40,830 nt of DNA from positions 1 through 40,830 of the forward strand of contig JBOGDU010000115.1 in NCBI GenBank assembly GCA_050743145.1, given 5' to 3'. Under the pieces are notes generated by a model, which saw nothing but the letters and a program-made list of their open reading frames with translations, did no database searches and had not been told where the DNA came from. Numbering within the stretch: the stretch's first letter is position 1; each line of letters starts with the position of its first letter. The position numbers and the translations under genes are program-made. Shown here piece after piece: positions 3,999 through 34,237 of the stretch. This DNA comes from Jiangellaceae bacterium (GTDB lineage Bacteria > Actinomycetota > Actinomycetes > Jiangellales > Jiangellaceae).

Positions 3999-5678
3999 TC
4001 AGCGGGGCATCGTGCTGCGCAATGACGACGACGAGGTGCGATCCAGCAGCGCCCTCGCGCTCAATCCCTGTACCGCTTCCGGCCGCGCAGGGGCGGCCGC
4101 TGTCAGGACGGCCTCGCGGAACTGGTCGTCCTCGCCGAGTCGGTAGACCAGCTCGCTCACCACGACCGGCGGCAACTCGTCGACCCGACGGTCGTCGACG
4201 CCGAGCAGGTCGCCGACGACGGCGCGGACCTGGTCGCCGGTCAGCTCGCCGAGGGCCGCACGCAGCCGGGTCACAGGCTGCTGCGCGGCCTCCGTGACCG
4301 CCTCGGCTACGGCGGTCTCGGGTAGATCCGGCAATCCGGCCTCGAGCAGGCCTTCGGCGTCGACGATGCCGACGCCGAAGGTGCGCTGCAAGCCGTTGCT
4401 GATCCAGTCGGACGGTATCCGGCGACCGTGGCTGCGCAACAACGCCAGGAACGCACCCTGGACGTTGGCCTTGCCGTATCGCCGGCGGATGGTTTCGGGA
4501 CCGTGGTGGGCCAGCCACAGCGCGGCGACACCGGCCAGCATCGCCACCGCGTACGAAGTGCCGTCGCTACGCGATCGGATGAATCCGGGCGGCGTCCCCA
4601 GGATGACCCGCGCCGTCCAGACGCTCTCGCCCGGTGCGGAGATGTCGACCGCGGCGCCGCGCGACGAGTCGTGCCAGGGCTTGTCGTCGCAGTTCGTGGC
4701 GGCCACGGCGAGGCATTCGGGATACGACGCCGGCGCGACGACGAAGGTGACCTTGTTGCCCGCCGCCGCCATCACGATCATGCCGTCGGCCACGGCCGCG
4801 CGGATCGCGTCCTGCAGTCCGATGAACCCTCGACCACCAAGGGACATCGAGATGATGTGGCAGCCGCGCTCGCGGGCCAGGTTGACCGCGCGCGCGACGT
4901 CGCCGTCCAGCACCTGGACCACGCTCTTGATCGCCCGGAAGGGGACCAGGGTCGCCAGGGGAGCGACGCCGCTGATCTCGCCCCGCTCGCGTCCGGCGAT
5001 GACGCTGCCGGTCTGCGTGCCGTGGCCGGGCGAGTCGAGTACGGCAAAGAACGCGCGCCGCAACGGATCGCGAGCGTTGTCGTCATCATCGATGAAGTCG
5101 TAGTCCGTTGTGAGGTCCAGCGCGGCGCGTTCCAACTCGGGATGGTCGCTGTAGCCCGTGTCGATATGCCCGATGCGGATGCCCTCGCCGCGGCTTCGCC
5201 CGCGCTGTTCGGGCGGCAATGCCCACGCCTCGCGGGCGCGCACGTTGTCCAGCGCCCATGCCTTGGTCCCCGAGCACGGAAGGTCCTGGCGGTCACTGTC
5301 CGCGGACTCGGGCTGCGGTTGCGTCGAGGGGACGGTGCCGACCTCGGGCCCGAACGCGGTAGACGGGACGTCGGGCTCGACCTCCAGGTCTGCTTCGTGC
5401 GAAAGCCTGGTCGCCAGGTCATAGGCCACGCGACTCTGGTCATATGCCGGTACCGAAGGAATCGCCCCGCTCACCACCCACCAGCGCTTGAGCTCAGCGG
5501 GCCGCGCGTTGCCGAACAGCCGCTCGAGCCGCCATGCGTCGCCCGCCATGTCCGCGGGTCCCAGCTGCCGCTGCACGGCCCGACGCAGATGCCGCTCGGA
5601 CTCGGCCTTTTGGGTCATGCCCGCGGGCAGCTGCACCAGCAACCGCACCCACCCCTGCGACGGATCCCGTGGACGCAT
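3999..5678 (-). CDS. S8 (subtilisin-family) serine peptidase with no detectable signal peptide, flanked by extra N- and C-terminal regions
   Basis: Catalytic motifs are in order: GHIDTGY (Asp), GHGTQTGS (His), AAAGNK (Asn), DGTSYAVAMLAG (Ser). Start ATG 5678 is preceded by GAGGGGGAG; the alternative is ATG 5714. The ORF-track extension to 6236 overlaps a real opposite-strand gene. Confidence 0.8.
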   Translation of the reverse strand: MRPRDPSQGWVRLLVQLPAGMTQKAESERHLRRAVQRQLGPADMAGDAWRLERLFGNARPAELKRWWVVSGAIPSVPAYDQSRVAYDLATRLSHEADLEVEPDVPSTAFGPEVGTVPSTQPQPESADSDRQDLPCSGTKAWALDNVRAREAWALPPEQRGRSRGEGIRIGHIDTGYSDHPELERAALDLTTDYDFIDDDDNARDPLRRAFFAVLDSPGHGTQTGSVIAGRERGEISGVAPLATLVPFRAIKSVVQVLDGDVARAVNLARERGCHIISMSLGGRGFIGLQDAIRAAVADGMIVMAAAGNKVTFVVAPASYPECLAVAATNCDDKPWHDSSRGAAVDISAPGESVWTARVILGTPPGFIRSRSDGTSYAVAMLAGVAALWLAHHGPETIRRRYGKANVQGAFLALLRSHGRRIPSDWISNGLQRTFGVGIVDAEGLLEAGLPDLPETAVAEAVTEAAQQPVTRLRAALGELTGDQVRAVVGDLLGVDDRRVDELPPVVVSELVYRLGEDDQFREAVLTAAAPARPEAVQGLSARALLDRTSSSSLRSTMPR

Positions 5679-5813
5679 CTGCTCCCCCTCACGAGTGAAT
5701 CGCCCTGAGCTCATAGGAGCTGGGCTTCCGGTGGCTCGCCGACGTCGAGGTCGGTGTTCTGACCGTAGTGCCGTTGTTCGAGCCGTGCTGGGGAACGACC
5801 TAGCATCCAGACC

Positions 5814-6206
5814 ATGAATGTGGAGACTGCTGCCCGCCGGTGGGCGGAGACGTGGAACCATGCGTGGCCGGCCCGCGACGTCGAGGCGATCGCGTCGCTC
5901 TACGCGGACGCTGCCGAGTACCGGGCACTGGTCTTCCGTGAGCCGGACTTCGGCGTAGCCGGGATACGTCGCTACCTGCGCGAGAACTTCGGCGCGGAGG
6001 ACGACATCGAGTGCCGGTTCGGCACGCCGGTGGCTGCCGGGGACCGGGCCGCGGTCGAGTGGTGGGCGACATGGATCGAGGACGGTCAGCGGCTGACCCT
6101 GGCCGGTGCGACGTTGCTCCGGTTCGACGACGACGGTCAGGTCGTCGACCATCGGGACTACTGGAACCAGGTCGAGCGCCGCGAGCCGCCGTACGAACAC
6201 TGGTGA
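5814..6206 (+). CDS. NTF2/SnoaL-like fold protein
   Basis: ARRWAETWNHAW..RDVEAIASLYADAAEY..AAVEWWATW..LRFDDDGQVVDHRDYW pattern. Confidence 0.6.
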   Translation: MNVETAARRWAETWNHAWPARDVEAIASLYADAAEYRALVFREPDFGVAGIRRYLRENFGAEDDIECRFGTPVAAGDRAAVEWWATWIEDGQRLTLAGATLLRFDDDGQVVDHRDYWNQVERREPPYEHW

Positions 6207-6347
6207 CACACTGCGTGGATCACTGTTGCGGGGCATAGTCGACGTGATGGTTGCCGGTTCACTGCTGTCCGAGTGACATCAGACCGGCGATGATCACTGA
6301 CAGTGGGGGAAGTCATACCGATTTCCCAGGGCAGGAAGGGGTGCGAC

Positions 6348-7133
6348 ATGACAACTGGTTCGAGTTCGCGGCTGCTCAGCGACGACCTGATCCGACTGCT
6401 GGAGCTGGTGAAGGGCTCCGACAGCATCGAGCTGAAGCTGACGGTGCCCGAGTCCGCTTACCGTTCGACGGCGGCCGCGCTCGGCGCGGACCCGCTGGAG
6501 GCGCAGATCCGCCAGGTGTTCTTCTTCGACACCCCCGACCTGGCCCTCGACCGGGCAGGCGTCGTCGCGCGGGCGCGGCGAGTCCAGGGGCGCGGGGACG
6601 ACTCCGTGATCAAGCTCCGCCCCGTCGTACCGTCCGAGCTTTCCGGCGACGTCCGCGGCTCGCCGAACCTCGTCGTCGAAGTTGACGTGATTCCTGGCGG
6701 CTACGTGTGCTCAGCGTCGCTGAAGGGCCAGCTCCCGAAGCCGGCCGTCCGGGCCGCGGCGCTGGGCGAGAAGCCGCTGCGCAAGCTCTTCTCGAAGGAG
6801 CAGCGGGCCTTCTTCGCCGCGCACGCCCCGGACGGCGTGACGATCGACGACCTGTCGGTCCTCGGTCCGATCTTCGTGCTCAAGCTGAAGGTCAGGCCGG
6901 AGGCGTACCCGCGTCGCCTGGTCGCCGAGATGTGGATTTACCCGGACGGCGCACGCGTCGTCGAGCTCTCCACCAAATGCCTGCCAGGCGAGGGGATCGC
7001 CGTGGGCGTCGAGGCCCGGCAGTTCCTCGAAAGCAAGGGCATAGACCTCAGCGGGGAACAGCAGACCAAGACCAGAACGGCTCTGGAGTTCTTCTCCTCG
7101 GAGCTGCAAACCCATCGCTCCCCACCGACGTGA
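6348..7133 (+). CDS. CYTH-like (triphosphate tunnel metalloenzyme / class IV adenylate-cyclase-like) domain protein
   Basis: SIELKLTV is a degenerate ExExK strand. It is followed by ARARRV..DDSVIKLRPV and VVEVDV / VVELSTK strands, in the usual CYTH order. RBS GGAAGGGG precedes ATG 6348. Confidence 0.5.
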   Translation: MTTGSSSRLLSDDLIRLLELVKGSDSIELKLTVPESAYRSTAAALGADPLEAQIRQVFFFDTPDLALDRAGVVARARRVQGRGDDSVIKLRPVVPSELSGDVRGSPNLVVEVDVIPGGYVCSASLKGQLPKPAVRAAALGEKPLRKLFSKEQRAFFAAHAPDGVTIDDLSVLGPIFVLKLKVRPEAYPRRLVAEMWIYPDGARVVELSTKCLPGEGIAVGVEARQFLESKGIDLSGEQQTKTRTALEFFSSELQTHRSPPT

Positions 7134-7288
7134 GCGCGGTTCGCACGATCTTCGGCGTGTAGTCTCACCGACAGGGGAGACGCCGACCGTGACTGCCGGC
7201 GCCGCCGTGTCACCATCACAGTGGGGCGTGGGCTTCGGGGGGGACGGCATGGGGCGGGTTCCGTTCGAGGTTCGGCGGCGGTAGCGGC

Positions 7289-7465
7289 ATGACCGGGTCG
7301 GACGGCCTGATCGTCGCCAACGGCGTGGACGCCGTCACCGGCGACTACCTCCTCGCGCCGCAGAACGTCCTGTACGGGATGTTCATGCACCAGGGGGAAC
7401 TCACCGTCCAGGACGAGCAGGACATCCTCACACCGGCAGTGGAGCGGATGAAGGAACACACATGA
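7289..7465 (+). CDS. Unannotated 58-aa ORF translationally coupled to the CHAT gene
   Basis: MTGSDGLIVANGVDAVTGDYLLAPQNVLYGMFMHQGELTVQDEQDILTPAVERMKEHT. Nearly every codon ends in G/C, whereas the upstream in-frame codons do not. ATG 7289 is the first start after the in-frame stop at 7190. Its TGA (7463-7465) overlaps the CHAT ATG (7462) as ATGA. Confidence 0.55.
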   Translation: MTGSDGLIVANGVDAVTGDYLLAPQNVLYGMFMHQGELTVQDEQDILTPAVERMKEHT

Positions 7466-9600
7466 GCACTGCCGACCTGAACGACGATCTGGAGCTCGCG
7501 GCGATCTGGATCGCGCTTCACGACGCCACTGAGAGCCGGCGCTTCTACGCCGCTCGGATACTCGCTCGCCATGATGTGAAGTCGCACGTTCGTGACGTCC
7601 AGCGTCTCGTTGATCAGGAACCGTCCGGGAGAGTGCGGTTCTGGCTGTCGGTCGCGCTGGCCAAGGCTGGGTTCTGGTCGGAACTGACGTGGGCGAACTG
7701 GGACCGGATCGACCTCGGCGATCCGGCCACGCTCGCCGGCGACATTCGGGCATGCGGCCCGTTTCCACCCGGCGCGATGGAGGCGATCCGGGACACTGCC
7801 GAGAGGTCGTGGGTCTTCGCCGCCTTCCTTCGCAGTGTGGATGCCCACATCCCAGCGGGTGACACGGCAGCCACGCCGGATGACGGCGACGACACTCCGG
7901 ACTTCGAGCCGACGGGGTCGGCACCGAGGGGCGTCGGATCCAGCGGGGAGACCGAGCTCCCGGACTTCGGAGCCGAGGCGGCCGTCGACGAACCGCCTGA
8001 GCCGGAAACCGCGACCCGCCAGGCGTACCCACGGGTCGACGCGCCGGACGTCGTCGTCGTGGACCACCCGTTCGACGTCATCGTCGGCGTCGCACCGCGT
8101 CGCGACCGGACGCTCGTCGGCACGGGTGGCTTCGACCTCACCGGCGACGAGGTGCGGCTCGAGGTTCTGCTGACTTACGACCCGCAGTCCTTACGCCTCG
8201 ACGGAGACTCCAGGCTCTCGCTGCCGGTCACGCGCGACGATCCCTATCCGTCGGCGACCGTGCGGTTCACCGCCCTCGACGGCGACGACCTCGGGAACGA
8301 ACGTCGCATCGGCGTGCACTACCTGCTCGATGGCGTGGTACGCGCGATTGCGTGGCGGGTCGTCGTAGCGGTCCTGACTCCGGACGAGGTGGCGGGCGCG
8401 CCGAAGCCGCAGACCCGCGAGCGCGAGCTGCTCGACCTGACTTCGCTGGTCGCGGAGGATGCTCCGGACCTCGTGCTCGCCGTGTTCCGGGCCGACTCGG
8501 CGGCGCCGGGCCACTACGTGTGGGCCGCGTATCCCTCGGCGGCCGGTGTCACCGTTCCCGACTCGAAGCGGGCACGGAGTCTCGGCGACCCGCGGAGCTA
8601 CACGACCGACATCGGGCGCGAGGTCGCGATGTCCAACGACCGCTACGCGCTGTATGCCTTCCTCGTCGGAACCGGTCGCACGATCGGCGATGCGGTACCA
8701 CCTGCCATTCAGGCAGCCATCCGCGAGGTCGCACAGCGGCCCGATCCGGCAGAGGCCGCTTCGGTATTGCTGCTCACCGAGGAGCCGTACGTGCCGTGGG
8801 AGCTGGCGGCGTTCACCCCGCCGCTGGCGACGCGGTTCGGCGGCGCGTCTCCGTTCCTCGGCGCGCATGTGGCGCTCGGTCGTTGGCCGCTCACCGAGAG
8901 CCGGCCGAGGCCCGTCCCACGACGGAGCGTCGAGGTGGTGGACCGTGCCGTGCTCACTGCGACGTACGTCGGGGTCACGGGCTGGCCGCAACTGCCGTTC
9001 GCCGAGGCCGAAGCTGCCGCGCTCGCGGAACGCTACCCGCGGACGGCTGTGGTCGAACCCGTCTTCCGTGATGTCCTCGACTGCCTGGGCGGGCAGCCCG
9101 CGACGGACGTGCTGCACGTCGCGCTGCACGGGCGGTTCGACCCGCAGGGCGTCGACCAGGGCCTGGTACTCCTCGCGCCGAAGGCGAACGGCGGCTTCGG
9201 GCCGCAGTACCTCAAGCCGCAGCACGTCGACGCCGTCACGATGCCGCGGCCGACGTTCCTGTTCCTCAACGCCTGCCAGGTCGGGCAGGGCCAGGTGACC
9301 CTCGGCGACTACGCGGGGCTGGCCGCTGCCCTTCTCAGGGCGGGCGCGTCCGGTGTCGTTGCCGCGCTGTGGAACGTCGAGGACGAAGTCGCGAGCCGGG
9401 TCGCGGACGAGTTCTACGCCGCGGTGTACCGCGGCGACGACGCTCCGTCGGTGGCCGAAACGCTCCGACGGATTCGCGCGAACTACACGGCCGACAACGT
9501 CGACACCGGGACGAGCGACAGTGCCACATTCGTGGCCTACCAGCTGTTCGGTCATCCGCGGTTACGGCTGTTATCAGGACAGGGAGACGACGGTGGCTGA
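7462..9600 (+). CDS. CHAT-domain (caspase-fold) protease with an N-terminal HEAT-like region, an acidic Pro-rich linker and a beta-rich middle domain
   Basis: The C-terminal dyad is VLHVALHGRF (His) and TFLFLNACQVGQG (Cys). The N-terminus has ARILARHDV..VRFWLSVALAKAG repeats. No TM segment or signal peptide. RBS GAAGGAA precedes the start. Confidence 0.8.
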   Translation: MSTADLNDDLELAAIWIALHDATESRRFYAARILARHDVKSHVRDVQRLVDQEPSGRVRFWLSVALAKAGFWSELTWANWDRIDLGDPATLAGDIRACGPFPPGAMEAIRDTAERSWVFAAFLRSVDAHIPAGDTAATPDDGDDTPDFEPTGSAPRGVGSSGETELPDFGAEAAVDEPPEPETATRQAYPRVDAPDVVVVDHPFDVIVGVAPRRDRTLVGTGGFDLTGDEVRLEVLLTYDPQSLRLDGDSRLSLPVTRDDPYPSATVRFTALDGDDLGNERRIGVHYLLDGVVRAIAWRVVVAVLTPDEVAGAPKPQTRERELLDLTSLVAEDAPDLVLAVFRADSAAPGHYVWAAYPSAAGVTVPDSKRARSLGDPRSYTTDIGREVAMSNDRYALYAFLVGTGRTIGDAVPPAIQAAIREVAQRPDPAEAASVLLLTEEPYVPWELAAFTPPLATRFGGASPFLGAHVALGRWPLTESRPRPVPRRSVEVVDRAVLTATYVGVTGWPQLPFAEAEAAALAERYPRTAVVEPVFRDVLDCLGGQPATDVLHVALHGRFDPQGVDQGLVLLAPKANGGFGPQYLKPQHVDAVTMPRPTFLFLNACQVGQGQVTLGDYAGLAAALLRAGASGVVAALWNVEDEVASRVADEFYAAVYRGDDAPSVAETLRRIRANYTADNVDTGTSDSATFVAYQLFGHPRLRLLSGQGDDGG

Positions 9601-11083
9601 GCAACTCGACCCCACAGGTGTCGCAGTCTCGATCGGGAGCGTCACGCTGCGCACACCGGGTCTCACCGGAACAGCGGAAGTCCATCACGCCGGCAGTTCC
9701 GGCATGCGTGCTGCTGAGGACGCGACAGCGGAGTTTCTCGAGTGCCTCGAGCGTGCCGGCGTCGAGGAGCAGTTGACAATCGAGATCCGGGACCCCTGGC
9801 AGACCGATGACGACGGAACCGGCAGCAGGGCGGCTGGTGGTGACGGCGACATCGAAGCGGAGGTGCCCGGACCGGGCACCGGCCTGGGGCAGTTCCTGAT
9901 CTTTACCGCGGAGGACGGGACCGTGAGCTGGCACCTGCCGGTGGACGTACCGCGGGACCCGCCGTCAGTGGCCTCCCGTGGTGATGACAGCCGGGTCTAC
10001 CGGGTACCGCGTGCGGTGACGCCGACGGTTCAGCCCGACGGAGCCGGGCAGCGCGGCCTGTTCGGCATCGTCGGGTCGAAACTCCTCAAGGTGCTGGTCT
10101 TTCCCCTCGTGGACCCGGTACTGGGCAAGGTCGGCGACTACTTCGCCTCCCGTTGGGAGCAGCGTCACCGGCAAAACGCGCTGCGGACGTTCCAGCCCGA
10201 GACCTACCGGCAGGCGGCGGGCGACCCGCTGCCTGACTGGTCCGTGCTGGCCGCCGGTCCGGCGCTGCTGTTCGTCCACGGGACGATGAGCCGATCGCAC
10301 ACCGGCTTCCGCCGGATCCCCGAGTCGTTGATCGGGGAGCTTCATTCCCGCTACGAGGGCAGGGTCCTCGCCTTCGACCACTTCACGATCTCGGTCGACC
10401 CCACGGAGAACGTGCGGTGGCTGGCGAAGCAGCTGCCCGACGGCCTCGGCATGACCGTCGACGTGATCGCACATTCCCGCGGCGGCCTGGTCGGCCGGGT
10501 CATGGCCGAGCGCGGCGAGGAACTCGGCCTCGGTGGCATCGTCGACGTACGCAACCTGATCATGGTGGGCACACCGAACGCGGGAACCGTCCTGGCCGAC
10601 CCCGAACACCTCGGCACACTGCTGGACCGGGTGACGAACCTGGTCCAGTTGGTGCCGGACAATCCGGTGACCGACACCGTCGATGTCGTCCTCGCCGTCC
10701 TGAAGCAACTCGCCGTGGGCGCGTTCGGAGGGCTCGGCGGCCTGGTCTCCATGAACCCGAACGGCAGCTATCTGCGGGAGTTCCTCAACCGGCCCGCCAC
10801 GACGGCGAGCACGTACCGAGCCGTCGCCTCGGACTTCGAGCCGGCTCAGGGGTCGCCGCTCGCCCGGACGGCTCGCGACGCGATCATCGACGTCGTGTTC
10901 GGCAGCATCGAGAACGACCTGATCGTGCCGACCGAAGGCGTCCACCACGTCAAGGGTCTCGACGGCTTCGCCCCGGCCGATCCGTTGGTCTTCCCGGCGA
11001 CCGCGGCTGTCGACCACAGCAGTTTCTGGGTCCAGGACGCCTTCGCCCAGAAGGTCCTCCAGTGGCTGCCGTCTCCGGATTGA
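9593..11083 (+). CDS. Alpha/beta-hydrolase (lipase/esterase-like) with a ~190-aa N-terminal domain of unknown function
   Basis: GTG 9593 follows GGGAG (9582-9586) and overlaps the CHAT stop by 8 nt. Motifs are LLFVHGTMS (oxyanion HG), VIAHSRGG (nucleophile elbow), ENDLIVP (Asp) and AVDHSSFW (His). Confidence 0.7.
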   Translation: MAEQLDPTGVAVSIGSVTLRTPGLTGTAEVHHAGSSGMRAAEDATAEFLECLERAGVEEQLTIEIRDPWQTDDDGTGSRAAGGDGDIEAEVPGPGTGLGQFLIFTAEDGTVSWHLPVDVPRDPPSVASRGDDSRVYRVPRAVTPTVQPDGAGQRGLFGIVGSKLLKVLVFPLVDPVLGKVGDYFASRWEQRHRQNALRTFQPETYRQAAGDPLPDWSVLAAGPALLFVHGTMSRSHTGFRRIPESLIGELHSRYEGRVLAFDHFTISVDPTENVRWLAKQLPDGLGMTVDVIAHSRGGLVGRVMAERGEELGLGGIVDVRNLIMVGTPNAGTVLADPEHLGTLLDRVTNLVQLVPDNPVTDTVDVVLAVLKQLAVGAFGGLGGLVSMNPNGSYLREFLNRPATTASTYRAVASDFEPAQGSPLARTARDAIIDVVFGSIENDLIVPTEGVHHVKGLDGFAPADPLVFPATAAVDHSSFWVQDAFAQKVLQWLPSPD

Positions 11084-11223
11084 GTCGCTCACGCTCCGCG
11101 CTTAGTCCCGACCGGCCTGCCGACGACTGGCTGGGTCTCGCATGATCGCCCCGTCCTCACCTTGACGGCGGCACTCTGCCCGGCCACGGTCGTCGGTAAG
11201 TCGACCGGTCCGGGAGGGCGGGA

Positions 11224-11868
11224 ATGTCCGAGCGAACCGTCACCATCGACATCGATGGCGGCGACGCGATACACGGGGACCTGACGGTTCCCGAGCACGC
11301 TGCCGGGGTCGTGCTGTTCGCCCACGGAAGCGGCAGCAGTCGGCACAGTCCGCGGAACCGAAGCGTCGCGCGCGAACTCCAGCAGCGTGGGCTGGCGACC
11401 ATGCTGGCCGACCTGCTCACCGAGGCCGAAGAGGGCGAGGACGCCCGGACCGGGCGCCTTCGCTTCGACATCGACCTACTGGCCGAGCGGCTCCTGCTCG
11501 CGACCCGGTGGCTGGCGCAGGAGCCGTCGGCGGCGCATCTGCCGCTCGGCTACTTCGGCGCCAGCACCGGTGCGGCAGCGGCCCTGGTCGCCGCCGCGCG
11601 TGTAGGCAACCAGGTCGCGGCTGTGGTGTCCCGCGGCGGTCGGCCGGACCTGGCCGGTGCGGCGTTGACCGAGGTGCGGGCTCCGACCCTGCTCGTGGTC
11701 GGTGGCCGGGATGATGTCGTTCTCCGGCTCAACCGGGTGGCGCTCGGCGAGTTGGGCGGCGTCCGCGACCTGGTGGTCGTCGACGGAGCGACCCACCTGT
11801 TCGAGGAGCCCGGAGCTCTCGACGAGGTCGCCCGCCTCGCCGGTGAGTGGTTCGTCACCCACCTGTAG
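11224..11868 (+). CDS. Dienelactone-hydrolase-like alpha/beta hydrolase
   Basis: VVLFAHGSGSSRHSPRN, YFGASTGAAAAL (GxSxG), VVGGRDDVV and GATHLFEEPG. Confidence 0.7.
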   Translation: MSERTVTIDIDGGDAIHGDLTVPEHAAGVVLFAHGSGSSRHSPRNRSVARELQQRGLATMLADLLTEAEEGEDARTGRLRFDIDLLAERLLLATRWLAQEPSAAHLPLGYFGASTGAAAALVAAARVGNQVAAVVSRGGRPDLAGAALTEVRAPTLLVVGGRDDVVLRLNRVALGELGGVRDLVVVDGATHLFEEPGALDEVARLAGEWFVTHL

Positions 11869-20250: not shown

Positions 20251-21639
20251 CTATGCGATGCGGGCGACGCACTCGGTGAGCTGGCGCAGTGTCGACACCT
20301 CGAAGACGTCGGTGCAGTACATCTCGTAGAGGGCGAGATCGGAGTCCGCAAGGTTCCACTCGCCTCGAGGCTCCGGATCGAGCCAGTACAGCCGGCGCGA
20401 CCTGCGGGCGAGCTCGGCCATCGCCGGCGCCGCCGACCTCCGGTCGTGCGAACGCGCGTCGCCGCAGACGATCACGGTCGTCTTGGGCCCGACGGCGTCG
20501 GGCCAGGCCTGCAGGAACCTCTCGAAGGCGAGCGCGTAGTCGCTGCGGCCGTCTCGGGCCATCAGGCCACGGCGGTCGAGCAGGTGACGGGGGTCGAGCA
20601 CGCCGGGGGACGACTCCAGCACGTCGGTGATCTCGACGATCCCGTCGACGAACACGAAGGAACGCACCCGCCGGAACTCCTGGTGCACCGCGTGCAACAG
20701 AGCGAGCGTGAACGGCGCGAACTGGGCGGTCGAACCCGATACGTCGCACAGGACGACGAGGTCGGGCTTGGTCGGGTGTCGGCGCTTGAGGACGACGTCG
20801 ATCGGCACACCGCCCGTAGAGATCGACCGGCGCAGCGTGCGACGCATCTCGAGGGTGCCGCGGCCGCGGCGGCGGGCCCGGTGGCCCAGCCGGATCGCCA
20901 GCCGGCGGGCGAGCGGTCGGACGGCGCTGCGCAGTGCCGCCAACTCGTCGGGTCCCGCCCGGAGGAGCGGGGTGTCCTCGAGTGCGTCCGGTTGCGGCGG
21001 CGGCGCTCCCACCCGGTCGCCCAACGATGCGGCCACCAGTGCTTCGATCCGGCGACGGATCTCTTCCATCCGCGCATTCGCCGCCGCGGCATCGACGCCG
21101 CGCTGCAGGGCGTCCGATTCGGTGTCCGGCTGCAGGATGCGCCGGTACAGCCGGCCGAGATCGACGCCGCGGAGAACGCGCTGGACGTGGTGCTGCACCG
21201 AGCGACCGTCGGGTTCCCCGGCCCAGCGGTCCACGGCATCGCCGAGAATCCTGTCCACAGTTGCGTCGTCACCGGCGGTGATCGCCTCTGCAAGCAGGCC
21301 AGTCGTGTCCTCGTCGCGACCGGCGCCGGACGACAGCGGCGGCACCGCAGGCCGGTCCCGCCCGAGACCGTCGTGCGGCCGGAGGAACACAGCCTCGAAC
21401 GCGAGGTCGAAGACGTCGCCGTGCGCCGGATCCTTTACCAGGCTGGCCCGCAACGCGTCGCGCACCTGGCGACGACGGCCGAGATCGACCTGGGCGAGTG
21501 CGCGGACTGCGTCGATGGACTCGCCGGTCGACACCGGCAGGCCGCCTGCGCGCAACCGCCGGGCCAGGGCGAGTACAGGGCCGAGCACGGTGGACGGCAC
21601 ACCGCTGGTGTCGTACGCTTCGCGAACGATGGTCCGCAT
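20251..21639 (-). CDS. VWA-domain protein (CoxE-like)
   Basis: MIDAS motif VVLCDVSGSTAQF, and the C-terminal VIVCGDARSHD..RLYWLDPEPR. Start ATG 21639 is preceded by AAGG. The rest of the 851-aa ORF is rejected. Confidence 0.8.
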   Translation of the reverse strand: MRTIVREAYDTSGVPSTVLGPVLALARRLRAGGLPVSTGESIDAVRALAQVDLGRRRQVRDALRASLVKDPAHGDVFDLAFEAVFLRPHDGLGRDRPAVPPLSSGAGRDEDTTGLLAEAITAGDDATVDRILGDAVDRWAGEPDGRSVQHHVQRVLRGVDLGRLYRRILQPDTESDALQRGVDAAAANARMEEIRRRIEALVAASLGDRVGAPPPQPDALEDTPLLRAGPDELAALRSAVRPLARRLAIRLGHRARRRGRGTLEMRRTLRRSISTGGVPIDVVLKRRHPTKPDLVVLCDVSGSTAQFAPFTLALLHAVHQEFRRVRSFVFVDGIVEITDVLESSPGVLDPRHLLDRRGLMARDGRSDYALAFERFLQAWPDAVGPKTTVIVCGDARSHDRRSAAPAMAELARRSRRLYWLDPEPRGEWNLADSDLALYEMYCTDVFEVSTLRQLTECVARIA

Positions 21640-21663
21640 ATCGAACACCTTAGGGGGCGCTGG

Positions 21664-22416
21664 ATGCCTGCGCCAGAGGTCCTGTTCGACCTCGCACTGA
21701 CGCTTCATCCCGAGCACGACGCGTCTGCCCAGGACCACGCGGCCATCCTGGCGGGCCGCCTGGGCTACGGGGAGGTATGGCTGCCGGCCGGTGGAGAGTA
21801 CGGGTGGCCCGACCCGGGCCGGCTGGACGTCCTGGCCGAGGCGGCGGGCAGGGCGCGGGTCGGCCTGGTGGTGTCGGGCGGAGCGGCCGACGTTGCCGCC
21901 GCCTTGCGCTCCGGCCAGGGCCGTGATGCCCTCCTCGAGCTCGATGGCGCTTCGGACGACCTGATCGACGCGGTCGGCGGCGAAGCCGCCTGGGGCGAGC
22001 GGGCGCGGCTGCCCCGCTTCGACCCGGCTGCGGCGGGCACCGTCGTTGCCGCCGGCAGCCGTGCGGCCGTGCTGGACGGCATCCGGACAGCGGTCAGGGA
22101 CCGCTCGGCGGCAGGCGTGTCTCGGGAGCATCACCACGTCGTCGCAGCCGTCCCGGTGTCGATCGGCAGGACGTTCAGCGAGGCCGACGCGCGCGCGCGG
22201 CGCGACCCCCGCCTGTCCGGCGACCGCGATCCGCGTCGGGGCGGGCTGTTCGGCACGCACGAGCAGGCGCAGAGCCAGGCCCTCGACCTGGCTGCCGCCG
22301 GCGTGGACGTGGTGCGCGTGACCGTTGCCGACGAGGTCGACGTGGCCGATCTGCTGGCCCAGGTGCGCTCTCTCGTGGTCGGGGCGACGCCCGTCCTGCA
22401 CGCTCGGCGTACGTGA
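21664..22416 (+). CDS. Short LLM-class (luciferase-like) flavin/F420-dependent oxidoreductase-like protein
   Basis: LFDLALTLHPE..AAILAGRLGYGEVWLP N-terminus and a C-terminal FGTHEQAQSQALDLAAAGVDVVRV. RBS AGGGGG is 7 nt upstream. At 250 aa it is shorter than typical LLM proteins. Confidence 0.45.
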   Translation: MPAPEVLFDLALTLHPEHDASAQDHAAILAGRLGYGEVWLPAGGEYGWPDPGRLDVLAEAAGRARVGLVVSGGAADVAAALRSGQGRDALLELDGASDDLIDAVGGEAAWGERARLPRFDPAAAGTVVAAGSRAAVLDGIRTAVRDRSAAGVSREHHHVVAAVPVSIGRTFSEADARARRDPRLSGDRDPRRGGLFGTHEQAQSQALDLAAAGVDVVRVTVADEVDVADLLAQVRSLVVGATPVLHARRT

Positions 22417-22499
22417 GCCCACCACCGGAACTGTGCGCTCGGGCTGTTGACATCCGATGTGCCCCGCCGGAGGATGAGCGTGTTCACTGGGCGAATGAG

Positions 22500-22516
22500 T
22501 GTTCGCAGATCGCACA
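22500..22516. promoter_or_regulatory. 17-bp dyad TGTTCG-CAGAT-CGCACA upstream of the hydroquinone dioxygenase genes; candidate IclR-type operator
   Basis: It has the same architecture as 16649-16665. A weaker adjacent copy is TGTTCA-CTGGG-CGAATG (22481-22497). TTGACA at 22447-22452 is a possible -35. Confidence 0.35.
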
Positions 22517-22548
22517 CGCTCGGCGATTGTGATCAGGGGAGGCAGACG

Positions 22549-23085
22549 GTGACTCAGGGTGTTCGGACGCCGGCAGGGGCCTATGAGGCCGAGTCGTACG
22601 TCACCAGGTTCGGATCCCTCGACGGCTTCGACAAGGGCGGCGTTGAGATCATCAACGACGATCCACGCCACTACGCCTTCTCCAACGTGTTCGAGGTCGC
22701 GGCCACGTCGAAGCCGTACGAGAAGGTAGCGGTCGCCAAGAACATGGAGTACGTGCTCGAGGCGGTCCGCGCCGAAGGAATCAGTGCCTGGCGTACCGCC
22801 GCCCATGACGAGTTCGCACTGGTACTCGACGGCGAGGTCCTGACCGACCTGGTCAAGCTGAACGAGCCGCCGCTGGCGGCCGACGCAGCCGGTTCAGTTG
22901 CTCTCGACGGGGAACCCGACGGCCGACGCATGGGCAGGATCACCTGCCGGCGCGGCCACCAGGCGCTGCTCCCCGCGGGTGCCGCATACCGCTTCACCGC
23001 CGCGACACCGTCGGTGATCCTGCAGCAGACGCTGTCCGGCCCGGACACGTTGTACCGCTGGGCCGAGATCTGTCAGACCCGTTGA
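22549..23085 (+). CDS. Hydroquinone 1,2-dioxygenase small subunit (HapC/PnpC-like)
   Basis: RBS GGGGAGG is 6 nt before GTG 22549. The 178-aa product sits immediately upstream of the cupin-type large subunit, matching the two-subunit enzyme's gene order and size. Confidence 0.6.
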   Translation: MTQGVRTPAGAYEAESYVTRFGSLDGFDKGGVEIINDDPRHYAFSNVFEVAATSKPYEKVAVAKNMEYVLEAVRAEGISAWRTAAHDEFALVLDGEVLTDLVKLNEPPLAADAAGSVALDGEPDGRRMGRITCRRGHQALLPAGAAYRFTAATPSVILQQTLSGPDTLYRWAEICQTR

Positions 23086-31954: not shown

Positions 31955-34237
31955 CTATTCCTCGAGCAGCCCGATGTCACGCGCCCTGAGCACTGCGTCT
32001 GTCCGCGTGGAGACACTCAGCTTGCGGTAGATGGAGATGGCATGGGTCTTGACGGTGTTGGTCGACACGAAGAGGCGTTCGCCGATCTCGCGGAATGACA
32101 GATGTGTCGGCAGGTATGAGAGCAGGCGCAATTCCGCTGCGGTCAGGGCGGTCGGGCCGGGGACGTCTCCTCCGCGGAGCAGCTCGAGCCGGCGCTGGAC
32201 ACCGCCGAGCTGTTCTCCGAGGGTGCCGTCGTCGGGCAGCCTGCCCACGATCTCGCGCGCGTCGGAGAGGAGCATCCATGCGCCCGCGCGGTCGGAGAGG
32301 GCGAACTGCACCCGTGCAAGCTCGACCATCGTCTGGACGGCGAGCCAGGGGATGGCACGGGTGAGCATCGGCCGTAGTCGTTGAGTCCGTATGACCTCCT
32401 GCCTCGCGCCGGCCACATCGCCGTCGTGGAGCGCGGTCCGGGCCACCGTGGCGAAGGTGATCGAGCTCAGCAGGTACTCCTCGAGATGGCCGGTCTCGAC
32501 GGCAGCACGGGCCCGATCCGACAGGCCGCGAGCCGCGCTCCAGTTGCTGCGGCCCATCGCCAGCAGAGACCGCTCGGCGAGGGCGACCGATGCGGCGGGC
32601 AGGGCTCCGAGACGCTCCGCTGCTTCGACCGCGTCGGCGAGGATCTCGTCGGCCCGATCGAGCTCGCCGGCCAGCAGTGTGCCGACACCGTGCAGGATGA
32701 GCGCCGCAGGTCGCCACGGGCTGCGCGACGACTCGAGGCCGACAGCCACTTCGGCGTCCTTCCGCATCTGCTGCACACCTCGCCGGCAGGTCAGGGCATG
32801 GAGGAGGCGCAGCGTCGACTCGCGTGACGTGCCGCCGTCGTGCGGACCATCCGCGACCGGGCCTCGCTCGGCGAGGTCGGCCCACCATGCCGCCCCGATG
32901 GCGTCGCCGGACAACGCCGCCGACCACCCGGCGATCAGCGCCAGCGAGGGATGCCGCTGCATGACCGTCTCGTCGAGGCGGTCGAGCCAGGCTTGCAAGG
33001 TCTTCAGCCGACCGGTGCGGTTGAGGGGGAACGCCAGTTGCTCGAGCAGCACGGCGGCCCGATCGTGGTCACCTCCGGCGAGGGCGTGGTGAACGGCGTC
33101 TTCGGGCACGTCGTTGGCGTCGAACCAGTCCGCGGCTCTGCGGTGAAGGATCGGCGCCAGGCCGGGTTCGCGCACGTTCAGCTCGGTCACCAGCACGTCG
33201 CGCAACAGATGGTGATAGCGATACCACTCCCGGTGATGATCGAGCGGAACGAGCAGCAGGTTGGAGTTCTCGATCGACCGGAGGACCTGCGCCGACCCGG
33301 TCCGGAGGAGGACGGCGTCGCAGAGTGACGCGGACATCCTGTCGAGAACGGAGGAGACGAGGAGAAAGTGCACCAGATCCTCGGACAGTCCGGTGAGGAT
33401 CTCCGACCGCACGTAATCGGCGACGAACCGGTCGTCTCCGGTGAACGCGATGCCCTGGACGCCGTCGTCTCCGCGGGCCTGCACGGACAGCGCCGCAAGG
33501 TACAGACCGGTCGGCCACCCCTCGGTGCGCTGGGTGAGTTCCGCCACCGCGCCGACGGGCAGGTCGACTCCCGCGTTCCGCAGCAGCGACCGAGCTCCAC
33601 CGGCATCCAACGCCAGATCCGAGGCACCGACCTCGGCCAGTGCGCCACGGGCTCGCAGCCGGGCGAGGGGAAAGTCCGGCACGGTACGCGAGGTCATCAC
33701 CAACTGTGAGCCCGGCGGAAGCCGTTCGGCGAGTTCGGCGACAACGTCGAGGCACGCCCGGTCGTCCAGGACGTGGATGTCGTCGAGGAGCAGGGCCAGC
33801 GGCCTTGACATGGCTGCGAGGGCCGCTACCAGCCGGGGAAGCACGGTCGACATGGCCGAGGCGCCACGCGACGAGAGTGCGGCGAACACGAGCGGGCCGA
33901 GAGGTTCGATGCGGTCGAGGGCGACCGCGATATGGGCCATCAGGACGACCGGGTCGTTGTCGCCCGCGTCGAGCGAGATCCAGGCGATCGGCCGGGAGTC
34001 GGCTTCCTCCCATTCGCCGAGCAAGGTGGTCTTCCCGTATCCCGGCGGGGCGATGACGGCTACGACGCGTGCCTGAAGGCTGCACAGCCGCTCGACCAGG
34101 CCGCGACGAGACACGGTTCCGGCCCGCAGCGGCGGCGGATTGAGCTTGGTTTCGATGACGCCGAACGGCGGGCCGGGCGGAGTGGCCGGCGCTCGCCTGC
34201 GGGTCGGTGTGGCTTGCCGGCGAGGCGAGCCGCTCAC
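31955..34237 (-). CDS. Large ATP-binding LuxR-family (LAL/MalT-like) transcriptional regulator
   Basis: N-terminal P-loop IAPPGYGKTTLL, a long helical/TPR-like middle region, and a C-terminal LuxR HTH LTAAELRLLSYLPTHLSFREIGERLFVSTNTVKTHAISIYRKL. Confidence 0.85.
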   Translation of the reverse strand: MSGSPRRQATPTRRRAPATPPGPPFGVIETKLNPPPLRAGTVSRRGLVERLCSLQARVVAVIAPPGYGKTTLLGEWEEADSRPIAWISLDAGDNDPVVLMAHIAVALDRIEPLGPLVFAALSSRGASAMSTVLPRLVAALAAMSRPLALLLDDIHVLDDRACLDVVAELAERLPPGSQLVMTSRTVPDFPLARLRARGALAEVGASDLALDAGGARSLLRNAGVDLPVGAVAELTQRTEGWPTGLYLAALSVQARGDDGVQGIAFTGDDRFVADYVRSEILTGLSEDLVHFLLVSSVLDRMSASLCDAVLLRTGSAQVLRSIENSNLLLVPLDHHREWYRYHHLLRDVLVTELNVREPGLAPILHRRAADWFDANDVPEDAVHHALAGGDHDRAAVLLEQLAFPLNRTGRLKTLQAWLDRLDETVMQRHPSLALIAGWSAALSGDAIGAAWWADLAERGPVADGPHDGGTSRESTLRLLHALTCRRGVQQMRKDAEVAVGLESSRSPWRPAALILHGVGTLLAGELDRADEILADAVEAAERLGALPAASVALAERSLLAMGRSNWSAARGLSDRARAAVETGHLEEYLLSSITFATVARTALHDGDVAGARQEVIRTQRLRPMLTRAIPWLAVQTMVELARVQFALSDRAGAWMLLSDAREIVGRLPDDGTLGEQLGGVQRRLELLRGGDVPGPTALTAAELRLLSYLPTHLSFREIGERLFVSTNTVKTHAISIYRKLSVSTRTDAVLRARDIGLLEE

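Follow-up and report, generated by a model that had tools for sequence, protein, structure and literature searches.

Considered here is a pair of adjacent, co-oriented genes, one for a CHAT (caspase-fold) protease and the other for an alpha/beta-hydrolase, within a stretch of DNA of 40,830 nucleotides (nt) from a Jiangellaceae bacterium (GenBank assembly GCA_050743145.1, contig JBOGDU010000115.1), that whole stretch being referred to below as the window. With a probability of roughly 0.7, this locus may be viewed as a two-component, proteolysis-gated cell-death module. The protease (7462-9600) would be inactive until some cue is received, probably via a lineage-specific helical N-terminal domain, via a beta-sandwich, or via both. 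Once active, it would cut the co-translated hydrolase (9593-11083) after Arg129 and again after Arg154, each of which precedes a glycine, and these cuts would remove an inhibitory segment of about 25 residues that lies between the hydrolase's own N-terminal domain and its catalytic core. The enzyme so freed, lipase- or esterase-like and possessing a Ser295/Asp442/His475 triad, would then damage the cell, i.e., as an abortive-infection defence or instead as a stress- or development-linked suicide.

A first-pass annotation of this DNA had described three open reading frames (ORFs) chained by two overlaps, that is, the above pair plus a short ORF (sORF) preceding it. Those ORFs, their overlaps, and their catalytic motifs were all located upon checking, with the start codons of the latter two ORFs backed by homologues:

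7289-7465, plus strand: sORF of 58 amino acids (aa), ATGA-coupled to the CHAT gene and a chimeric remnant.
7462-9600, plus strand: CHAT (caspase-fold) protease gene, 712 aa, as based on Pfam CHAT, 112 homologues, an AlphaFold2 model, and Foldseek.
9593-11083, plus strand: alpha/beta-hydrolase gene, 496 aa (N-terminal domain plus DUF7379 core), a putative zymogen effector, as based on Pfam, homologues, AlphaFold2, and fold matches.

The sORF and the CHAT gene share the ATGA found at 7462-7465, and the GTG start of the hydrolase gene, at 9593, is 8 nt inside the end of the CHAT gene, with a GGGAG Shine-Dalgarno-like sequence 5' of that GTG. Orthologous CHAT proteins open with MS[TA]ADLNDD, and M-A-E-x-L-x-P opens 18 of 18 aligned hydrolases. 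The three products had been held to lack signal peptides as well as transmembrane segments, and a Kyte-Doolittle 19-residue scan, which is a crude test, is in agreement, its maxima of 0.98, 1.68, and 1.82 giving no clear segment of either kind. A promoter and terminator scan of 6900-11400 found no sigma-70-like site, as is expected for a high-GC actinobacterium (the GC content of the window is about 0.64-0.73). The nearest relatives of the window's proteins are found in Jiangellaceae metagenome-assembled genomes, and in several related genomes the orthologues of the CHAT protein and the hydrolase are 77-88% identical to those of the window.

The pairing of these two genes extends well past the Jiangellaceae. 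A hydrolase-based genome scan supplied 80 loci, from Actinomycetota, Chloroflexota, Acidobacteriota, Gemmatimonadota, Nitrospirota, and Eisenbacteria, and in about 70 of these, across the six phyla, protease and hydrolase are adjacent and on the same strand. Indeed, the beta-sandwich plus CHAT portion of the protease is immediately 5' of the hydrolase, in the same orientation, in nearly all of the loci having upstream DNA. The spacing of the two genes ranges from a 23-nt overlap to a 126-nt gap, with an 8-nt overlap recurring, and even downstream of CHAT homologues of just 27-36% identity (TCAD7-, SEFIR/TIR-, and LCAT-CHAT proteins) there still is a DUF7379 gene. All-against-all clustering of flanking ORFs from the 80 loci yielded no shared third gene, and certain recurrent clusters of plus-strand ORFs, considered as a possible third component, were rejected, being shadow ORFs cast by a second, divergent CHAT gene which only some loci possess. 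The core is thus a two-gene module rather than the trio originally described: the pair is syntenic across phyla, but the sORF is not a conserved partner.

The two enzymes also occur as single polypeptides. Fusion architectures include Peptidase_C14(-DUF4384)-DUF7379 (1100-1200 aa), DUF7379-CHAT(-TPR-S), and CHAT-DUF7379 (P0026), with plasmid-borne fusions, annotated as CHAT or as caspase, seen in Ruegeria, Paracoccus, Nostoc, and Anabaena. Lengths exceed 700 aa in 29 of the top 150 representative hydrolase clusters, and among nine such clusters examined by Pfam every one carries extra N- or C-terminal sequence, this being a caspase or CHAT domain in seven. Such fusions, found in both orders, support a functional link between protease and hydrolase.

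Variations on this arrangement exist. In about 26 loci (within L011-L068, e.g., L024:3005-5251, minus strand) a second CHAT gene, divergent from the pair and absent from the window, is found just upstream; its CHAT domain is N-terminal and its C-terminus often CBM9-like, and its presence could point to a protease cascade. In L004-L006 there are TIR-beta-sandwich-CHAT proteins (P0011) which are 65% identical to the window core and which are without a hydrolase gene. Close by, at distances of a few kilobases, are genes for a D5_N primase and for MerR, such that the element may be mobile. Two Longimicrobiales loci possess a hydrolase without an upstream CHAT gene: in L075 (11418-13607) it is near a Peptidase_C14-nSTAND1 gene and WD40 genes, and in L076 (746-4405) it is fused to an N-terminal C14 caspase and is followed by a CHAT gene. 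In L023, L040, L041, and L052, all from long-read metagenome-assembled genomes, the CHAT gene is split across frames upstream of an intact hydrolase, these being pseudogenes or assembly errors.

The protease of the window consists of four successive parts, as had largely been anticipated from its sequence (a HEAT-like region, an acidic, proline-rich linker, and a beta-rich domain, all prior to CHAT), and all are evident in an AlphaFold2 model of the protein (mean predicted local distance difference test, or pLDDT, of 84.8; predicted template modelling score of 0.74):

7480-7842, plus strand: helical HEAT-like N-terminal domain, residues 7-127, seen as AlphaFold2 helices with a faint HEAT_2 match; only close relatives keep this domain.
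7843-8013, plus strand: disordered acidic/proline-rich linker, residues 128-184, including P-R156-G157, as judged by pLDDT below 50 and by composition; in the model the disordered stretch runs from about 123 to 180.
8014-8373, plus strand: beta-sandwich, residues 185-304, from AlphaFold2 strands and Foldseek; conserved with the CHAT domain in nearly all loci.
8374-9597, plus strand: separase/Csx29-like CHAT region, residues 305-712, by Foldseek, with the His556 codon at 9127-9129 and the Cys605 codon at 9274-9276.

The Pfam CHAT match covers residues 501-678 (E 9e-20). Within it are H556 (of ALHG, with G557 next) and C605 (of NACQ), which are invariant in 56 aligned homologues, so the intact His/Cys dyad claimed by the first-pass annotation is borne out. 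Modelled as two-lobed, the region following the beta-sandwich reaches the C-terminus, and its top Foldseek matches are Csx29 (the best, E 4e-8), separase, the anti-sigma factor DdvA, and gingipain R. The beta-sandwich in turn matches CARDB, macroglobulin, and cohesin-like modules.

Only the C-terminal roughly 75% of this protease, i.e., beta-sandwich plus CHAT, is conserved, with the N-terminus being swapped freely. Among CHAT homologues the N-terminal modules include TIR, FHA-TIR, SEFIR-TIR, an LCAT-type lipase, a protein kinase, an SDH/ClpP-like protease, and TCAD7, and in 65 genomic copies the N-termini mostly have no Pfam match, with an occasional HEAT_2, TCAD7, second CHAT, or SDH protease. 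The helical domain of the window protease, as a lineage-specific variable module, may be a sensor or an adaptor. The disordered linkers that follow such modules are unconserved across the protease family other than for a short motif: [WYF]R[GS] is present in 27 of 56 linkers, versus a background of 0.0006 per position, and R[GS] in 46 of 56. P-R156-G157 of the window linker is, going by this motif, a possible self-cleavage site. Another candidate for self-cleavage, R-x-A-Y-P-R at residues 186-191, was rejected as it sits in the confidently modelled first strand of the beta-sandwich.

The hydrolase, for its part, may be divided as follows:

9593-9979, plus strand: N-terminal domain, residues 1-129, conserved over its full length and ending at candidate site 1 (R129/G130).
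9980-10054, plus strand: candidate excised inhibitory segment, residues 130-154, variable and of low pLDDT, ending at candidate site 2 (R154/G155).
10055-11080, plus strand: putative active C-terminal fragment, residues 155-496, containing the triad and starting with a hydrophobic new N-terminus, GLFGIVGSKLLKVLVFPLV.
10475-10477, 10916-10918, and 11015-11017, plus strand: codons, respectively, of the triad residues Ser295, Asp442, and His475.

A Pfam DUF7379 match spans residues 225-396 (E 4e-54), and PGAP1 and palmitoyl thioesterase match below threshold. Of 78 distinct homologues, 76 retain S295 and every one retains D442 and H475, and the first 200 residues also are conserved, so that an alpha/beta-hydrolase with a full Ser-Asp-His triad behind an N-terminal domain, as first proposed, is what is found. 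In its AlphaFold2 model (pLDDT 73) an N-domain of mixed beta type is separated from an alpha/beta-hydrolase core by residues 142-160, which are poorly predicted. Membership in a well-characterised metabolic esterase family had been named as an outcome that would count against an effector role; in Foldseek the core instead has a generic likeness to lipases and thioesterases, and to no particular metabolic esterase family. A 90%-clustered database contains 676 homologues, with the best 120 being full-length at 48-88% identity, and an exhaustive hydrolase profile search yielded 4628 clusters (50% identity), 1174 of them at E <= 1e-30. A literature search for 'DUF7379' found no paper.

It is at the boundary between N-domain and core that two Arg-Gly dipeptides stand out. 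Of 78 hydrolases, 72 have R129 and 72 have G130, and all 78 have R154, followed at position 155 by G in 73, S in 3, and A in 2. The 25 residues between these dipeptides include one short strand plus a loop, are variable in both length and sequence, and are overlapped by a region, residues 141-160, over which pLDDT falls to 34-40. The second site is kept, as RRG-IVG, even in the Ruegeria fusion protein, which is just 32% identical. R129/G130 and R154/G155 may therefore be viewed as candidate cleavage sites, an assignment that would fit the double-cut logic published for another caspase-paired hydrolase.

What follows R154 has a character of its own. Residues 155-173 (10055-10111), i.e., GLFGIVGSKLLKVLVFPLV, are glycine-rich and are the most hydrophobic stretch of the protein (1.82 in the 19-residue hydropathy scan), and the family consensus at site 2 is R|G-[LIV]-[LIF]-G-A-[LIV]-G. 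The N-terminus predicted from an R154 cut, which would begin G-L-F-G-I-V-G, resembles the influenza HA2 fusion peptide, GLFGAIAGF, which itself is generated by cleavage following an arginine. A rather doubtful extension is that the R154 cut exposes a hydrophobic N-terminus which drives the enzyme into membrane while the protease also cuts its own linker, at [WYF/P]-R-[G/S], so shedding its N-terminal module (HEAT-like here; TIR, SEFIR, LCAT, or protease elsewhere), with one proteolytic event thereby supplying two outputs.

The double-cut logic comes from Lysobacter capsici AZ78. Evans et al. (bioRxiv 10.1101/2025.11.14.688446) report alpha/beta-hydrolases to be among the most abundant protease-associated effectors, and that LcCaspase cuts LcHydrolase after Arg73 as well as Arg117, both being R|G, with R|G motifs kept in 161 homologues. 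The resulting N- plus C-terminal fragments of LcHydrolase kill Escherichia coli. Shared with the window locus are a caspase-fold cysteine protease adjacent to a lipase-like alpha/beta-hydrolase, a short segment which precedes most of the catalytic core and is flanked by two conserved Arg|Gly motifs, and a wide distribution in Actinobacteria, along with relatives (L075) that are beside caspase-nSTAND1 and WD40 genes, as Evans et al. describe. The proteases differ, in that the one in the window is CHAT/separase-like and has a short helical N-domain as well as a beta-sandwich, whereas that of the LcCaspase type is a small caspase whose sensor is WD40 or STAND. The window hydrolase, at 496 aa, has a folded 129-residue N-domain, versus an LcHydrolase of about 300 aa, this being a likening by published description and not by sequence, and the spacing of the sites is 25 residues versus 44. 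What marks out a module of this type, namely protease-hydrolase adjacency or fusion, a His/Cys dyad, a Ser-Asp-His triad on a lipase-like fold, and two Arg|Gly motifs, is, at the level of sequence, all present in the window.

That the hydrolase is the substrate of the protease could be questioned. It might instead act as the protease's regulator or maturation partner, or it might process a small-molecule signal, with the output then being cellular proteolysis or release of the protease's N-terminal module. Some family members do have enzymatic N-termini (TIR, SEFIR, LCAT, SDH protease, kinase), the TIR-CHAT proteins occur without a hydrolase gene, the conserved [WYF]R[GS] of the protease linker could be a site of self-cleavage, and effector-less caspases can defend alone (Evans et al.). 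Arguing the other way, Arg-Gly dipeptides are conserved at the domain boundary of the hydrolase, fusions keep the hydrolase N-domain and second Arg-Gly site, and for the Lysobacter pair direct cleavage and fragment toxicity have both been shown. This alternative is, on balance, very improbable. A protease-gated lipase or esterase effector, which is what the first-pass annotation had suggested, is supported in terms of gating via the hydrolase's N-terminal region, i.e., by the synteny of the pair, by fusions, by the conserved Arg-Gly dipeptides, and by published cleavage in Lysobacter. The further suggestion that the 58-aa sORF peptide might serve as cleaved or inhibitory element did not hold up (below).

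Whether this family had already been named was a question raised at the outset, and the pairing indeed had been described, both by Evans et al. in 2025 and by Kaur et al. 2020 (PMC7159879). The latter found that in vWA-MoxR (VMAP) ternary systems the caspase-superfamily domain always is accompanied by a neighbouring alpha/beta-hydrolase gene, with a related hydrolase found in GAP1 GTPase systems. An obligatory neighbourhood of caspase-superfamily peptidase and alpha/beta-hydrolase thus is shared with the window pair, as is an actinobacterial bias, and TCAD7, a domain defined in that work, is present in some members of the window family. Differing from the VMAP ternary system, no VMAP, MoxR, or vWA is beside the window pair, nor does any recur in the 80 loci, and the protease domain of the window type is C-terminal with a variable N-terminus rather than being fused to a VMAP N-terminus.

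Other proteolytic systems are similar in logic but not in parts. Type III-E Craspase, in which Csx29 cleaves Csx30, shares with the module proposed here a protease that would cut a dedicated neighbouring substrate, with Csx29 being the best structural match to the CHAT region. Unlike Craspase, the window locus lacks Cas7-11, a CRISPR array, and TPR, and its substrate would be a putative enzyme zymogen rather than a sigma/anti-sigma-type regulator. There are, that is, no direct repeats of >=22 nt spaced <=120 nt in the window and no Cas-related Pfam match among the ORFs scanned. With gasdermin-protease systems the proposed commonality is a caspase-like or CHAT protease which rids an adjacent death effector of its inhibitory peptide. 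Here, though, that effector would be an alpha/beta-hydrolase rather than a pore-forming gasdermin, and the candidate sites lie towards the N-terminus instead of the C-terminus; the genes adjacent to the protease are those of DUF7379, a DLH-type hydrolase, a CYTH-like protein, and SnoaL, with no gasdermin among them. Propeptide lipases such as BlEst2 of Bacillus licheniformis (PDB 6wpx/6wpy), which are among the Foldseek matches, similarly combine a lipase-like fold with an N-terminal pro-region that is removed, but these are secreted housekeeping enzymes without a dedicated caspase-fold protease or intracellular death function.

The sORF requires separate treatment. Its open frame is coding-like in composition, with GC content at third codon positions (GC3) of 0.90 versus 0.65 in the intergenic DNA upstream, and it is detectable only in close Jiangellaceae relatives, there partially, with indels between loci and one frame break. 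A search with the sORF plus the protease N-domain led to 214-aa proteins possessing a lipoprotein-type signal (P0235-P0237), the gene for which is intact and ATGA-coupled to an orthologous HEAT-CHAT gene in L092-L094. The matching portion is:

7364-7459, plus strand: part of the sORF corresponding to the C-terminus (residues 182-213) of the 214-aa lipoprotein-like protein (tblastn, 90.6% identity over 32 aa), and carrying the GAAGGAA ribosome-binding region of the CHAT gene.

All relatives keep the last approximately 10 sORF codons, including this GAAGGAA, a conservation for which the location there of the CHAT gene's ribosome-binding region is explanation enough. The sORF, on this comparison of sequences, is a 3' stump of the 214-aa gene, as left by an upstream deletion, and its peptide is without a role; at most, the sORF maintains translational coupling and provides the protease gene with a ribosome-binding site. 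It is rejected as a third conserved component, given its absence beyond close Jiangellaceae relatives, its mosaic and frame-broken state there, and a 3' end which is the tail of the 214-aa gene. Its first 26 codons (7289-7366; MTGSDGLIVANGVDAVTGDYLLAPQNV), with a GC3 of 1.0, are common only to the window and L001/L010 (L001:7574-7654), and in L001/L010 those same codons (MTGSDGLIVANGVDAVTGDYLLAPQNV) open a different, longer ORF.

Given such a history, the window copy might be an orphaned remnant of a larger, STAND-controlled operon, one which has lost its sensor by upstream deletions and which is now silent or decaying. In L092-L094 the 214-aa gene is retained within a string that includes nSTAND1-WD40, and five Jiangellaceae loci display differing deletions upstream of the CHAT gene. 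Both genes nevertheless are intact in the window, with all catalytic residues kept and with the above-noted 77-88% identity to orthologues of several relatives. An NTPase neighbour, moreover, is missing from most of the 80 loci, which argues that the pair works as a unit without one, and the STAND and CHAT-SIR2 genes of that string may belong to a separate, adjacent system. Decay of this sort is accordingly judged improbable. The string itself (L092:1-6752; also in L093 and L094) is tightly packed, with small overlaps or gaps between genes, and consists of a C25-like peptidase, CHAT-SIR2 (726 aa), nSTAND1-WD40 (1181 aa), the 214-aa gene, and HEAT-CHAT as the last visible member; it may represent one larger system or instead two adjacent ones.

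The two-component module, as the preferred reading, then has to do without a conventional sensor. No NTPase, cyclase, or CRISPR element was found near the window pair by Pfam scanning of ORFs and by the direct-repeat scan, nor is a WD40 or STAND sensor fused to or beside the window protease, which possesses just its helical N-domain of about 120 residues and metabolic neighbours. The first-pass annotation was correct in seeing no NTPase sensor in the operon but not in considering this to be unusual, as it is the usual state of the subfamily, with a swappable protease N-terminus, and the sensor-less state is less odd than had been supposed. NTPase-linked relatives are found in L092 (nSTAND1-WD40), in L075 (caspase-nSTAND1 plus WD40), and in Ruegeria (a SIR2-AAA ATPase gene).

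In terms of what the module is for, an anti-phage role is plausible by analogy but is not indicated by gene context. The same mechanism could serve instead as a chromosomally inherited suicide or remodelling module, used by actinobacteria and other soil bacteria when stressed or developing, and this is possible, if still rather unlikely. Vertical inheritance is suggested by flanking genes which are mostly housekeeping, those for DnaB (with intein), encapsulin, and MatE recurring beside the pair. Related systems have been tied by Kaur et al. to a multicellular way of life, and what Evans et al. demonstrate for the hydrolase module is toxicity rather than phage protection. On the other hand, some relatives adjoin genes of mobile or defence type, such as an integrase, M78 peptidase, dCTP deaminase, HNH, D5 primase, SIR2-ATPase, or nSTAND1-WD40, and a hypervariable protease N-terminal module is typical of conflict systems.

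Several points weigh against a proteolysis-gated death module, and particularly against one serving in defence. Flanks in about 32 loci hold few defence genes as identified by PADLOC, a phage collection contained no hydrolase homologue, and neither the sORF product, the CHAT protein, nor the hydrolase matched any model of PADLOC-DB v2 (NCBIfam likewise had no model for them). One hydrolase (P0200; L003:9792-11288), found beside a 937-aa CHAT protein, has its nucleophile Ser replaced by Ala (AHARGG) and may be inactive. The hydrolase model is only moderately confident at its pLDDT of 73. LcHydrolase, at about 33 kDa, is much smaller and reportedly has its cut sites within the hydrolase fold, whereas those of the window hydrolase precede the catalytic core and are proposed by analogy. 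Gene order, domains, catalytic residues, synteny, fusions, and the conservation of the Arg-Gly dipeptides are what the sequences show directly; for this branch, it is cleavage, the exact sites, toxicity, the trigger, and the biological role which I infer.

The remaining genes around the pair in the window are those of SnoaL, CYTH-like, DLH-type hydrolase, ferredoxin-reductase-like, and transaldolase proteins. The CYTH-like protein (6303-7133, plus strand; 276 aa) has a faint CYTH (triphosphate tunnel) match only, at E 0.025, and is 90% identical in L002/L008, where it is directly upstream of the sORF remnant, but it is absent from L001 and L007. Further upstream is a 745-aa ORF (3999-6236, minus strand) for a mycosin-like S8 subtilase, with its domain at residues 350-577 and a match to the PADLOC 'subtilase' model at E 2e-16; the upstream region of L001 instead has an S41-S8 protein, which is different from this subtilase. 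An 851-aa ORF about 9 kilobases (kb) from the pair and on the opposite strand (20251-22806, minus strand) is VWA_CoxE in its C-terminal 220 residues, with no Pfam match for its first approximately 600 residues and with no MoxR/CoxD gene found beside it. Lastly, about 21 kb from the pair is a large LuxR-family regulator (31955-34237, minus strand), with an AAA_16 (STAND-like) ATPase and a GerE helix-turn-helix, for which there is no sign of linkage.

The class of module to which this locus belongs has already been described computationally and, for one member, biochemically, so the gain here is incremental. What the locus adds to the proteolysis-licensed death effectors is a CHAT-linked branch which is both large (1174 representative clusters at E <= 1e-30) and broad in its phylogenetic range. 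That branch usually runs without an NTPase sensor, having in its place a hypervariable N-terminal module on the protease, and it comes with concrete candidate sites, R129/G130 and R154/G155, that can be tested. The trigger of such minimal systems, along with the substrate of the hydrolase, would in this way become approachable questions.

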